Assembly (NCBI RefSeq): GCF_055900595.2
Contig: NZ_CM148325.1
DNA: 64,000 nt
Direction: 5' to 3' (one strand)
Shown: in pieces, positions 37,248-46,689 of the stretch
How the letters are laid out: each line of letters opens with the position of its first letter
Numbering within the stretch: position 1 is the first letter of the stretch
Program-made: the position numbers and the translations under genes
The notes under the pieces: model-generated
Seen by the model: the letters and a program-made list of their open reading frames with translations, nothing else
Told to the model about the DNA's origin: nothing
Databases searched by the model: none

Positions 37248-38645
37248 ATTTTTACCCGAGTCGCTAATTTTTGCCGCAAGGTGCTAAGCCGCGAGGAAAG
37301 CGAGGCTGAACAGGCAGTCGCCCGTCCACAGGTGACGGTGATCCCGCGTGAGCAGCATGCTATTTCCCGCAAAGATATCAGTGAAAATGCCCTGAAGGTA
37401 ATGTACAGGCTCAATAAAGCGGGATACGAAGCCTGGTTGGTTGGCGGCGGCGTGCGCGACCTGTTACTTGGCAAAAAGCCGAAAGATTTTGACGTAACCA
37501 CTAACGCCACGCCTGAGCAGGTGCGCAAACTGTTCCGTAACTGCCGCCTGGTGGGTCGCCGTTTCCGTCTGGCTCATGTGATGTTTGGCCCGGAGATTAT
37601 CGAAGTTGCGACCTTCCGGGGACATCACGAAGGTAACGTCAGCGACCGCACGACCTCCCAACGCGGGCAAAACGGCATGTTGCTGCGCGACAACATTTTC
37701 GGTTCCATCGAAGAAGACGCCCAGCGCCGCGATTTCACCATCAATAGCCTGTATTACAGCGTGGCGGATTTTACGGTCCGCGATTACGTTGGTGGCATGA
37801 AGGATCTGAAAGACGGCGTTATCCGTCTGATTGGTAACCCGGAAACGCGCTACCGTGAAGATCCGGTACGTATGCTGCGCGCGGTTCGTTTTGCCGCCAA
37901 ATTGGGCATGCGCATCAGCCCGGAAACCGCAGAACCGATCCCACGCCTGGCAACCCTGCTAAACGATATTCCTCCGGCACGCCTGTTTGAAGAATCGCTT
38001 AAACTGCTACAAGCGGGCTACGGTTACGAAACCTATAAACTGTTGTGTGAATACCATCTGTTCCAGCCGCTGTTCCCGACCATTACCCGCTACTTTACGG
38101 AAAATGGTGACAGTCCAATGGAGCGGATCATTGAGCAGGTGCTGAAGAATACTGACACGCGTATTCATAACGATATGCGCGTCAACCCGGCGTTCCTGTT
38201 TGCCGCCATGTTCTGGTATCCCCTGCTGGAAACAGCACAGAAAATCGCGCAAGAGAGCGGCCTGACTTATCACGACGCTTTCGCGCTGGCAATGAACGAT
38301 GTGTTAGACGAAGCCTGCCGTTCACTGGCGATCCCGAAACGGCTAACCACTTTAACGCGTGATATCTGGCAGTTACAGTTGCGCATGTCCCGCCGTCAGG
38401 GTAAACGCGCATGGAAATTACTCGAACATCCGAAGTTCCGTGCCGCTTATGACCTGCTGGCACTGCGTGCTGAAGTAGAACGCAACGCCGAGCTACAACG
38501 TCTGGCGAAATGGTGGGGTGAGTTCCAGGTTTCCGCGCCGCCGGACCAAAAAGGGATGCTTAACGAACTGGATGAAGAACCGTCACCGCGTCGTCGTACT
38601 CGTCGCCCGCGCAGACGTGCGCCGCGCCGTGAGGGCACCGCATGA
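37248..38645 (+). CDS. pcnB: poly(A) polymerase I
   Basis: 465-aa protein [15 protein letters not shown]...; in-frame ORF begins at TTG 37227 but the conserved start position corresponds to ATT at 37248 (known non-canonical AUU initiation in E. coli). Confidence 0.8.
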
Positions 38646-39118
38646 CAGTGGCGTATATTGCTATCGGCAGCAATCTGGCCTCTCCGCTGGAGCAGGTCAA
38701 TGCTGCCCTGAAGGCAATAGATGACATTCCTGAAAGCCGCATTCTTGCCGTTTCTTCGTTTTACCGCACCCCACCACTGGGGCCGCAAGATCAACCCGAT
38801 TACTTAAACGCAGCCGTGGCGCTGGAAACCTCTCTTACAGCTGAAGAACTCCTCAACCACACACAGCGTATTGAGTTGCAGCAAGGTCGCGTCCGCAAAG
38901 CTGAACGCTGGGGACCGCGCACGCTCGATCTTGATATCATGTTGTTTGGTAATCAGGTCATAAACACTGAGCGCCTGACCGTTCCGCACTATGATATGAA
39001 GAATCGTGGATTTATGTTGTGGCCGCTGTTTGAGATCGCGCCGGAACTGGTGTTTCCTGATGGTGAAACGCTGCAAGCAAGACTCACTACTTTCCCTCCC
39101 TGCCCACAGCACTGGTAA
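38642..39118 (+). CDS. folK: 2-amino-4-hydroxy-6-hydroxymethyldihydropteridine pyrophosphokinase
   Basis: 158-aa [31 protein letters not shown] overlaps pcnB stop (ATGA); C-terminal approx. 18 residues differ from the K-12 protein as recalled. Confidence 0.85.
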
Positions 39119-39621
39119 ACCACATTTCTGGAAAAGCGTATTGGGTAATGCAATGTTGTATAATATTATTTTATAGTTTCAATGAATTAATTCTCTCTCC
39201 CCCATCATAAAAATCACAAAAAAACAGCATTAAACATATAATTACGGCAAATATATTTTCATTACCTATATTAACTTTTCTCTTTATAAGAGGTTTTTAA
39301 TGATAATGAACCAGTTTATTCTGGGTACTATGCCTCACTCCCGGTATTAGCACTGGATAGCGCTTAACTGGATTCTGTCAGGCTGGGACGGGGCAACAAG
39401 AGCATACAACGACCAGTCCTTAACGCGTGATTATTAATTTCTACAGCGTATCATCATATTATTTAAATCTGCCCAACCTCACCAAATACATTCATAAAAT
39501 GCATAATGATAATAAATCATAAAATACATTCACCGAAGATATTTCTCTTTAAAGAGCGTGACATTTATAATAAGTATTGGTGAGAAAAATCACCCCCATT
39601 AATTTTTATAAGGATATTCCC

Positions 39622-40191
39622 ATGTTAAAAAAAAGTGCTATTGCTGCGGCATTAGTGATGTTCACCACTTCTGCTTTCGCGCTGGATGGCGGTCAATTAG
39701 ATTTCGCGGGTTTGGTGAGTGACAACACTTGCGTCTTGCACGTCAACGGTGGCGCCCAGGACGGTCAGATTACCCTGCAAACCGCCACAACCACTGAAGT
39801 TAATCAGGCCGGTGTTGTCCAACTTGCCAGCCCTGGCGCAAAACCGGAAGCCTTCTCTATTACGATCGATTGCTCGGACGATCCACAGGGCGCCTCTGCC
39901 AATCTGAGCATGGGTTCCGTGTTCTTCAGCAACAGTCAGGGCACTCTGAACAACGATCTCTCCATTAGCCAGGCGGCTACCGGGGTCGCGATTGCCATTC
40001 ACTACCTTACCGATGCCACTACCTACGAACAGATGAGAGTGAACGACAGCACTGATGTTAAAAACCTGCTGTTTACCAACGGCAAAGCGGTTTACAACTT
40101 TAAAGCGTCATATGTAAAACAGGCAGCAACAGTTAACGCAACGGCAGGTTATGTCAAAACCAACGCCGCTTATACAGTGACTTACCAGTAA
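39622..40191 (+). CDS. yadN: fimbrial major subunit (chaperone-usher pilin)
   Basis: 190 aa from MLKKSAIAAALVMFTTSAFA (signal peptide), conserved C-terminal pilin strand ...YTVTYQ; RBS AAGGAT upstream; symbol by position at the folK-panB yad locus. Confidence 0.7.
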   Translation: MLKKSAIAAALVMFTTSAFALDGGQLDFAGLVSDNTCVLHVNGGAQDGQITLQTATTTEVNQAGVVQLASPGAKPEAFSITIDCSDDPQGASANLSMGSVFFSNSQGTLNNDLSISQAATGVAIAIHYLTDATTYEQMRVNDSTDVKNLLFTNGKAVYNFKASYVKQAATVNATAGYVKTNAAYTVTYQ

Positions 40192-40248
40192 ATATCTGCA
40201 TCACCCGACAGCCCACGGGCTGTTGGGTCACTCAATAAGGATAGTGTT

Positions 40249-45398: not shown

Positions 45399-45424
45399 TC
45401 TACATCACTCTCAAGGATGAAGAG

Positions 45425-46657
45425 ATGAACACGCAACTTTTTTCCCGGTTTAAGCGGTGGTGTCTAACACTGCTGGTTCTGTTGCCCTTCTATTCAGGCT
45501 GCCTGCACTCTGCCGACACAATAATCGTCGGCGACAAAAGCTATTCAGGCTCGACGAATAACAATGCCGGGCCACAGGGGGATGGCAACGCAACGGCAAC
45601 GTTCAGCACAGGGGCGAATCAGATAGTGATCCCAACCTCAGCGGGGCTACAAAGTAGCAACCTCAGGCTCCAGTTGGGTTCGATGGATTCAGCCTCATCT
45701 GGAAATGGCCTGATTTACTGTGGAGCTGGCGGAATGGGAACACCATTAACCCTGGAGAGCCATTTCGTGGATGCCCAGGTGAGTGCTGATGGTCACAAGC
45801 TCTTTAAAACCAATGTGCAGGGTCTCTACTTCAGGATGCACATGTACCGTGTGAGCTCATTCAAAACAACCTCCAGCAGCGATATCTATATCGGTGATAC
45901 CCCCCAACAAACACTGACCTTAATTCCCGATAGTTCCGTATGCGTCGCCAATCAGGGAAAATACACAGCAATAGGCGGGCTGGTCAGTAAAATTGATATT
46001 GAGTTTTATAACGATGGAACCTTCAATCCCAATACGACAGGTAGCATCGCTTTACTGAGCAACAAGGGATATCACTATTCAGTGACAAATGCAGCGCCTG
46101 GTGGTGCATTGACCTCGCACTCTATTTATCAGACGTTCAACATGGGGAACGTGACGCTCAGCTCGCCAACCTGTACCTCAGCGGTCGTTTCGGGGAATAC
46201 AGTTCAGGGAGATACCGTCAGCCTCGGTGAATATAACCCCAAAGACATCATTGATGGCGTTGACGGCATCCCTTTTGGTATAGCACTAAAGAACTGTTAC
46301 CGGGTCACCAATATCGAGGTCAAAATGACTACCGGCGCCCCTGCAATGTCGGCTGCTTTATTGGGTAACTCGTTAACCGCCGAAGCCAATGCCGCCAACG
46401 GTGTAGGCGTCGAGATTAAAGGAAAATCGAACTCGCATTATGCCGAGGTTGTTCTTCACCCTAATGATACCCATTCTGTTTATAAAGCCTATGTCGATAC
46501 AGCTGACACGTCGAATGGCATTATTGGTTCAGGCACATCGGGAACCGCAGCAAATCAAACGCTAAATTTTGTCGCCACTCTCAAACAAGACAACAATCAA
46601 CAAATCAGAGGCGGTGATTTCAAAGCGACCGCCGTTTTCTCTATCACTTACCCCTGA
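45425..46657 (+). CDS. yadC: fimbrial tip adhesin candidate (two-domain: N-terminal receptor-binding, C-terminal pilin)
   Basis: 410-aa ORF, signal peptide, C-terminal ...KATAVFSITYP pilin domain; last gene of operon; symbol by position. Confidence 0.6.
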   Translation: MNTQLFSRFKRWCLTLLVLLPFYSGCLHSADTIIVGDKSYSGSTNNNAGPQGDGNATATFSTGANQIVIPTSAGLQSSNLRLQLGSMDSASSGNGLIYCGAGGMGTPLTLESHFVDAQVSADGHKLFKTNVQGLYFRMHMYRVSSFKTTSSSDIYIGDTPQQTLTLIPDSSVCVANQGKYTAIGGLVSKIDIEFYNDGTFNPNTTGSIALLSNKGYHYSVTNAAPGGALTSHSIYQTFNMGNVTLSSPTCTSAVVSGNTVQGDTVSLGEYNPKDIIDGVDGIPFGIALKNCYRVTNIEVKMTTGAPAMSAALLGNSLTAEANAANGVGVEIKGKSNSHYAEVVLHPNDTHSVYKAYVDTADTSNGIIGSGTSGTAANQTLNFVATLKQDNNQQIRGGDFKATAVFSITYP

Positions 46658-46663
46658 GCCCCG

Positions 46664-46689
46664 CGCCGGCAGGTTCCCCTGCCGGTTTT
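46664..46689 (+). terminator. intrinsic terminator ending the fimbrial operon
   Basis: CCGGCAGG-TTCC-CCTGCCGG followed by TTTT, 7 nt after the adhesin stop. Confidence 0.7.

Follow-up and report, generated by a model that had tools for sequence, protein, structure and literature searches.

The window analyzed here, a 64,000-nucleotide stretch of contig NZ_CM148325.1 (RefSeq assembly GCF_055900595.2), carries an intact chaperone-usher fimbrial operon of the Yad/Sta type (gamma-4) between folK and panB. We conclude, with a probability of roughly 85%, that this operon of an Escherichia cryptic clade I genome falls into the least common of three ancient usher classes, whose gene sets are exchanged as cassettes through homology in the flanking genes. 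The operon is a rare member of the known Yad/Sta chaperone-usher family; it uses the standard mechanism and represents no new kind of system.

A divergent seven-gene operon at the yad locus

Between folK and panB, the + strand carries seven intact open reading frames (ORFs), and pcnB and panC are the neighbors beyond (Table 1). Their order and near-identical sizes are those of the K-12 arrangement folK-yadN-yadV-htrE-yadM-yadL-yadK-yadC-panB, and the window corresponds to the reverse-complement orientation of K-12 coordinates 132.5-196.5 kb. An earlier annotation of the letters alone, made without database searches (the sequence-only reading), had proposed a seven-gene chaperone-usher operon at this site, and ORFs, order and sizes bear this out. 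It had also suspected that the proteins are unlike K-12 Yad; identity to K-12 is indeed only 36-60% across all seven. The flanking proteins PcnB, PanB and PanC are 100%, 97% and 98% identical to those of K-12.

The nucleotide match to K-12 (BLASTN) ends inside folK at 39074-39075 (~codon 145), 47 nt before the K-12 folK stop, and starts again at 46775, the panB ATG. Between 39074 and 46775, only parts of the chaperone and usher genes align, at ~65%. A drop inside folK and a recovery just before panB is what the sequence-only reading had anticipated.

Table 1 Features of the folK-panB region in the window, with protein identity to K-12 for the seven cassette genes.
Feature	Coordinates	Strand	Size and details	Identity to K-12 protein
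folK	38642-39118	+	158 aa	
folK body (HPPK), codons 1-141, conserved, putative left recombination arm	38642..39064	+		
folK hypervariable C-terminal tail, codons 142-158 + stop; left edge of variable segment	39065..39118	+		
AT-rich intergenic region upstream of the major pilin gene	39119..39621	+	503 nt; GC 37-38%	
Major pilin (YadN/StaA-like)	39622-40191	+	189 aa from ATG; 204 aa from upstream TTG	53% (YadN)
Periplasmic PapD-like chaperone (YadV/EcpD-like)	40249-40992	+	247 aa	55% (YadV)
Outer-membrane usher (HtrE-like)	41025-43631	+	868 aa	60% (HtrE)
Minor pilin (YadM/StaD-like)	43648-44217	+	189 aa	38% (YadM)
Minor pilin (YadL/StaE-like)	44223-44825	+	200 aa	36% (YadL)
Minor pilin (YadK-like)	44826-45398	+	190 aa	42% (YadK)
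Predicted two-domain tip adhesin (YadC-like)	45425-46657	+	410 aa	37% (YadC)
Terminator-like GC hairpin + TTTT, 3' of the adhesin gene	46665..46689	+	hairpin 46665-46686	
panB leader and panB, putative right recombination arm, zone of raised divergence	46690..47569	+		

Three usher classes and their frequencies

Ushers of 12 sampled strains separate into three classes, with identities of 53-61% between classes and 67-100% within them. Class I comprises K-12, 2013C-4282, 1428 and 2012C-4221 (ushers 73-89% identical; FolK ending in ..LNKW or ..LSKW), class II the window, EC42405, N96, Pseudocitrobacter vendiensis and LHM10-1 (83-100%; ..CPQHW, ..CPQRW or ..CPALW), and class III O157:H7, RM9513 and 2017-02-2CC (67-81%; ..QPEIW, ..QPAIWY or ..QPVIW). 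In O157:H7 strain 611, the class III operon between folK and panB is complete with seven genes (L010 4945-11909), with a FolK of 160 aa ending in ..QPAIWY.

Megablast at ≥80% usher coverage against 5426 complete genomes assigned 3923 genomes to class I, 574 to class III and 23 to class II. The 23 divide into 14 carriers of the window-type cassette and nine of the LHM10-1 type; nine class II genomes are E. coli sensu stricto. All 14 window-type carriers have clade-I-like flanks that are nearer to the window than to K-12, and the window-type cassette is in the majority among the clade I genomes examined.

The window usher is 83% identical to that of LHM10-1 and 97% to those of N96 and P. vendiensis. 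Between the window and LHM10-1, both class II, synonymous sites are saturated (synonymous divergence, dS, of 1.2-2.4 or not computable). The Salmonella Sta-type operon occupies the same locus, and its usher is 62-64% identical to class II versus 54-57% to classes I and III, so that class II stands nearer to the Salmonella usher than to classes I and III (53-61%); the Salmonella FolK tail is class-II-like (..HPHCPALW). Escherichia albertii holds a window-like class II cassette (YadN 91%, YadV 97%, FolK tail equal to that of N96). As class II lies nearer to Salmonella Sta and also occurs in E. albertii, the classes should date back at least to the separation of these genera.

Cryptic clade I background and raised divergence around the cassette

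Housekeeping DNA of the window has ~95.7% identity to K-12. In a control region of 6 kb (8000-14000), identity reaches ≥99% in only 8 of the 5426 complete 'E. coli' genomes and is ≤95.9% in nearly all remaining ones. Isolate E400634 (400634), one of these eight clonal genomes, is identical to the window in the compared regions and has been typed as 'Cryptic I', OND:H45, sequence type (ST) 485 (PMC13064198). EC42405 and 2013C-4282 are clade I strains, and the average nucleotide identity of clade I to E. coli sensu stricto is just >95.9% (PMC10100065). Judged by these comparisons, the window is Escherichia cryptic clade I, ST485-like. The general ~4% housekeeping divergence from K-12 follows from this membership; the sequence-only reading had not recognized that much of the substitution in housekeeping genes is of clade I level.

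Around the cassette, dS relative to K-12 is raised ~2-4-fold to 0.27-0.58, against mostly 0.1-0.2 (typically ~0.13) in the outer genes. The individual values are 0.41 for gluQ, 0.30 for pcnB, 0.39 for folK (whole gene), 0.575 for panB, 0.31 for panC, 0.27 each for rpnC and yadE, and 0.38 for yadI.

Its absence from the best matches at 8-14 kb had raised the possibility that EC42405 is E. coli sensu stricto and imported a segment, which we dropped since the strain is published as clade I (PMC10100065). Outside the cassette, EC42405 is mostly 95-100% identical to the window at 29-58 kb and not >95.9% at 8-14 kb; the latter mismatch suggests that one of the two strains has a further recombined stretch near glnD-cdaR.

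Unlike cassettes on near-identical flanks

All three cassette classes are found within clade I, on near-identical flanks. Strain 2017-02-2CC (clade I, class III cassette) is 97-100% identical to the window in its flanks away from the cassette and still 96.6% identical in the final 1 kb ahead of the folK tail; its cassette proteins are 31-55% identical. The clade I strains 2013C-4282 and 2020CK-00188 carry a class I cassette on similarly near-identical flanks. Across these three strains, flank identity is 97-100% away from folK/panB and goes down to 95-97% beside folK.

These data bear on the simplest account of the locus, plain vertical divergence, in which the operon and the FolK tail would differ from K-12 only through clade I ancestry and the locus would have no special dynamics. 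The ~95.7% housekeeping identity to K-12, the restriction of ≥99% identity at 8-14 kb to eight clonal genomes, and the clade-I-like flanks of every window-type carrier are all in line with it. However, ancestry alone does not yield cassette proteins at 36-60% identity to K-12 and dS saturated even against the related LHM10-1 type on a background of ~0.13, nor three classes within clade I on near-identical flanks, nor class II in nine E. coli sensu stricto genomes, E. albertii and Pseudocitrobacter. We therefore consider it highly improbable.

Exchange is also visible across genera. A cross-species scan with exact 8-residue patterns of the window usher in one genome per species, which detects close relatives only, gave a single locus, in Pseudocitrobacter vendiensis CPO20170097T (NZ_CALSBS010000004.1). 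There, a tract of ~8.1 kb (L007 6579-14700), reaching from yadN to ~150 nt into panC, is 96-100% identical to N96 (97.5% overall), and the flanks are 65-84% identical to N96 except for the conserved dksA. Over most of their length, these flanks are 90-99% identical to P. faecalis (PcnB 99%, PanC 97%), so the contig is of true Pseudocitrobacter origin. A class II cassette of its own is present in P. faecalis, with an usher 81-82% identical to that of the window. PanB of P. vendiensis is 100% identical to N96 versus 95% to P. faecalis, and this Escherichia-type PanB sets the direction of transfer as Escherichia to Pseudocitrobacter. On these alignments, the tract appears to be a recent inter-genus homologous replacement. 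Together, the unlike cassettes on near-identical clade I flanks and the P. vendiensis tract argue for cassette replacement by homologous recombination. P. vendiensis additionally keeps an extra upstream pilin gene (L007 5832-6404; 70% to window YadN) and its own class-II-like FolK tail.

Class II itself is mosaic: N96 and two MFDS strains are 91-97% identical to the window from folK to mid-yadK, and their adhesin is 61% identical to the window adhesin and 77% to that of LHM10-1.

A second alternative is a recent xenologous import, in which clade I took its cassette from another genus (e.g. Pseudocitrobacter or a relative) or from E. albertii. The native-looking class II cassette of P. faecalis (usher 81-82%), the one in E. 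albertii (YadN 91%, YadV 97%, FolK tail as in N96), adhesins related at the 60-66% level in E. albertii, Pseudocitrobacter and [Enterobacter] lignolyticus, and the rarity of class II in E. coli (23/5426) would agree with such an origin. Yet the sole demonstrable recent transfer, marked by the Escherichia-type panB in P. vendiensis, runs the opposite way, and cassette GC overlaps that of the flanks (0.43-0.56 per 500-nt bin). Window-type cassettes in clade I also show differences of 3-8% among themselves and a mosaic structure, N96 having a swapped adhesin, which indicates long residence, and the 8-residue-pattern scan of one genome per species gave no donor >97% identical to the window cassette outside clade I. 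Recent import is thus unlikely. The sequence-only reading had suggested that the window's own segment was exchanged; we saw no sign of an import here, and this cassette is the majority type in the examined clade I genomes.

Within the open-access literature on folK, panB and the fimbria, we found no description of the cassette classes, the class-linked FolK tail or the inter-genus tract.

Cassette borders and the FolK tail

On the left, the window stops aligning at ~39074-39078 (folK codon ~142-145) with each of K-12, 2017-02-2CC and P. vendiensis. The right border is the panB ATG against K-12 and the post-adhesin terminator hairpin against 2017-02-2CC, which has a different cassette and, downstream of the hairpin, the window's version of the panB leader. 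After the match to K-12 resumes at 46775, identity over the 5' two-thirds of panB is only 86-91%. The panB leader (46690-46777) is dimorphic, with two unrelated-looking versions. The window's, with the tandem ATGATG start (panB start at 46772/46775), is common to all class II strains and 2017-02-2CC (class III); the other is present in K-12, 1428, 2012C-4221 and 2020CK-00188, with a variant of it in O157 and RM9513.

The K-12 FolK C-terminus given in the sequence-only reading, DGEMLRQILHTRAFDKLNKW, is correct, and the window tail differs from it. In an alignment of 11 proteins, including Pseudocitrobacter, FolK residues 1-141 are almost invariant, and within residues 142-158 only L144, L148 and W158 are conserved. 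Because these three residues are kept, the window tail is a diverged homologue, one residue shorter, and not an unrelated sequence. Its motif follows the usher class: ..LNKW/LSKW in class I, ..CP(Q/A)xW in class II and ..QPxIW in class III. Compared with clade I strains that carry other cassette classes, the window's FolK body shows 97% identity across 144-148 residues, and in the aligned sequences of such strains the first 104 residues are the same. These patterns indicate that the body follows the clade background and that only the last ~17 codons go with the cassette.

Two earlier suggestions about folK hold in part. Compared with housekeeping genes, a substitution excess exists for the whole gene (nonsynonymous divergence, dN, 0.078) but not for the body (codons 1-144), which is neighbor-like (dN 0.025, dS 0.33); with the amino-acid excess in the tail and a body dS similar to that of its neighbors, folK is not exceptional among them. 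An exchanged haplotype spanning folK and yad stands as far as the divergent cassette, its borders and the exchange are concerned, but only ~codons 142-158 co-vary, not the whole of folK.

The enzyme itself seems complete. FolK scores 324.6 bits against the NCBIfam model NF007595 (cut-off 252, residues 1-150) and 155 against TIGR01498 (cut-off 54); the full-length HPPK catalytic core is present and can be aligned with crystal chains of E. coli HPPK over residues 1-149. An AlphaFold2 (AF2) model built from 11 near-identical sequences was poor (predicted local distance difference test, pLDDT, 58), and we drew no inference from it on a tail helix.

Protein families and selection within the cassette

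The usher passes the HtrE-family equivalog model NF007337 (1359 bits, cut-off 830, residues 15-866), the chaperone the YadV/EcpD-family model NF007398 (368 bits, cut-off 285), and the YadK-like subunit NF011794 (205.9 bits, cut-off 132). The other pilins match below cut-off, with E-values of 1e-33 to 1e-49 to the StaA, StaD and YadL/StaE models: the major pilin has StaA as its best NCBIfam match (142.5 bits, cut-off 230), the first minor pilin scores 115 bits with StaD, and the second 168 bits with YadL (cut-off 206).

For the adhesin, a Pfam run on this protein alone placed PF00419 at residues 246-409 only, and NCBIfam YadC-type models gave 267-278 bits, below their cut-offs of 382-391. Its AF2 model is all-beta with two domains at moderate confidence (pLDDT 71). 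A sequence search of the adhesin against the PDB returned no match and only fold comparison of the model did; the best PDB matches in Foldseek were FimH, LpfD, FocH, PapG and CfaE. The model thus predicts a two-domain tip adhesin with a variable N-terminal lectin-type domain and, at the C-terminus, a pilin domain.

In the comparison with EC42405, the cassette genes that differ all have dN/dS values of 0.03-0.26 (yadN is identical); the major pilin has a dN/dS of 0.21 against N96. Within the adhesin, the N-terminal half shows dN 0.061/dS 0.155 and the C-terminal half dN 0.005/dS 0.131 (both against EC42405). These rates point to working genes under purifying selection, with relaxed or diversifying change only in the adhesin lectin half. 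None of the seven ORFs is disrupted in the window or, as annotated, in the 13 other carriers, and eight identical cassette copies come from human and dog isolates.

The K-12 yad operon is cryptic and H-NS-repressed, a repression known for class I yad (PMC3559732, PMC13245861). This raises a third alternative, that the cassettes are silent relics decaying under relaxed constraint, and the broken chaperone of 2017-02-2CC, adhesin of 2020CK-00188 and usher of E. albertii could be taken in the same sense. Such decay is hard to square with seven intact ORFs in the window and 13 carriers, with the dN/dS range of 0.03-0.26, or with eight identical copies from human and dog isolates, and we give it very little credence. 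In the relatives concerned, the chaperone gene of 2017-02-2CC (L006 7580-8318) and the adhesin gene of 2020CK-00188 (L009 4371-5650) are frameshifted, and the usher ORF of E. albertii is interrupted, its longest piece being 518 aa (L019 4562-7218).

Regulatory signals and absence of mobile-element signs

The AT-rich region 39119..39621 presumably holds the promoter and an H-NS-silenced regulatory region. A promoter-like site with a 10/12 match lies at 39213-39242; across 38900-47000, sites found by the promoter consensus scan were no commoner than in shuffles. Terminator-like sites in the same interval were ~2 standard deviations above the shuffle mean, nearly all of them within coding sequence. 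The post-adhesin hairpin has a fold energy of -17.9 kcal/mol (z = -2.0). By analogy with class I Yad and from the AT-rich leader, the window operon is probably H-NS-silenced under normal conditions and induced by host cues.

We looked for mobile-element signs at the locus and found no integrase or transposase ORFs, no meaningful flanking direct or inverted repeats, and no tRNA or other RNA genes. Cassette GC (0.43-0.56 per 500-nt bin) overlaps the range of the flanks. A genomic island or mobile element was rejected on these grounds.

Comparison with known systems

The Yad operon of E. coli K-12 and extraintestinal pathogenic E. coli (yadN-ecpD/yadV-htrE-yadMLKC) shares the folK-panB slot, gene order and sizes with the window operon, and the usher and chaperone of both fall under the same NCBIfam equivalog models; the proteins differ, at only 36-60% identity, and the window lectin domain is too dissimilar for the D-xylose and annexin A2 binding reported for YadC to be assumed. 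Yad has been defined by locus and usher clade, as a core-associated fimbria equated with Salmonella Sta (PMC3559732). By the locus and gene-order part of that definition, the window operon would count as Yad. A 2026 survey called genomes 'Yad-positive' when the usher was ≥80% identical to EC958 HtrE over ≥80% of the length, and found 70% positive, with 5% in phylogroup D and 0% in phylogroup E (PMC13245861). The same study reported that the minor subunits and the lectin domain are highly variable and that phylogroups have recombined with one another, and shows K-12 as a reference in the YadC phylogeny of Yad-positive operons (PMC13245861). Compared with K-12 HtrE and other class I ushers in place of EC958, the window usher is 57-60% identical and would very probably score as Yad-negative by the 80% usher threshold.

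In the Salmonella contig examined, the Sta operon of Salmonella enterica (staA-G) agrees with the window in both locus and gene order. StaA and StaD are the best NCBIfam matches of the window major pilin and first minor pilin, the usher is slightly nearer (62-64%) than K-12 HtrE, and the FolK tail ..CPALW is like that of class II. It nevertheless belongs to a different genus and is still only 40-64% identical to the window (adhesin 40%).

Hypervariable surface-antigen loci that are replaced via flanking homology are exemplified by the O-antigen rfb cluster with its hitch-hiking gnd and by the allelic variation of fimH and fimA. The yad locus resembles these in its deeply divergent gene sets at a fixed site with conserved housekeeping flanks, in the raised synonymous divergence of these flanks, and in cross-lineage exchange. 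It differs in that every alternative keeps the seven-gene architecture and that the 3' end of folK, an essential gene, is part of the variable segment.

Other loci in and near the window

The fhuA gene (26737-28992, - strand) is a highly divergent allele relative to K-12 (dS 2.16, dN 0.27), with 64-79% nucleotide identity at ~27000-28900. At 28000-28999, it is equally far (66-80%) from the clade I strains EC42405 and N96 and from LHM10-1. By these values, fhuA, whose product is a receptor for phages and colicins, seems to be another hypervariable surface-protein locus in the window. In 2013C-4282 (L008 1-737), fimbrial chaperone and fimbrial protein genes adjoin mrcB, where the window and K-12 have fhuA. 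The 3' part of rpnC/yadD (- strand; 48500-48900) is 75-83% identical to K-12 and the remainder of the gene 92-98%. Short pieces resembling repetitive extragenic palindromes at 48429-48529 match other K-12 intergenic sites.

Discussion

The findings fit a model in which the folK-panB slot is filled by one of three usher classes, which behave as exchangeable cassettes. The conserved folK body would serve as the left recombination arm and the panB leader with panB as the right one; the last ~17 folK codons would belong to the variable part and share the divergence of the cassette. As in the family at large, the chaperone would fold the subunits and the usher assemble them at the outer membrane into a pilus made of a rod of major pilin, three minor pilins and, at the tip, a two-domain adhesin, making the operon a likely donor-strand-exchange pilus with a class-specific tip lectin. 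The AT-rich upstream region probably silences expression normally. Long-term diversifying or frequency-dependent selection on the surface proteins may maintain the classes; such selection would be strongest on the receptor-binding half of the adhesin and would also lift neutral divergence in the adjacent housekeeping genes.

Several points weigh against this interpretation. The three-class scheme comes from the ushers of 12 sampled strains, and the megablast class counts miss ~900 genomes with truncated or more divergent operons. With all 14 carriers clade-I-flanked, the window's own cassette may simply have come down vertically in this clade. The assembly behind the P. vendiensis mosaic is a draft, and the suggested selection regime is read from divergence patterns only.

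A broader proposition, to which we give even odds, is that the folK-panB slot is a trans-generic 'fimbrial serotype' locus of Enterobacteriaceae. It would hold at least three classes as old as the Escherichia-Salmonella split or older, kept by balancing or diversifying selection within single lineages and moved across species and genera by homologous recombination, with the C-terminal ~17 residues of FolK permanently hitch-hiking. If this is true, surveys that score phylogroups D and E as 'Yad-negative' miss divergent classes at the same site. Identity-threshold 'Yad' screens miss class II and the O157-type class; given the full operon of O157:H7 despite 0% in phylogroup E (PMC13245861), Yad prevalence and host-association statistics are class-specific.

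Cryptic clade I is an emerging source of strains resembling Shiga toxin-producing and enterotoxigenic E. coli (PMC10100065). Its predominant Yad-type adhesin has a predicted lectin domain unrelated to that of the studied YadC, so that the receptor specificity of YadC need not apply to it. The locus offers a compact, well-bounded case of cassette replacement by flanking homology that includes a recent inter-genus event, and its ancient classes, hitch-hiking FolK tail and apparent Escherichia-to-Pseudocitrobacter transfer make it of specialist interest.

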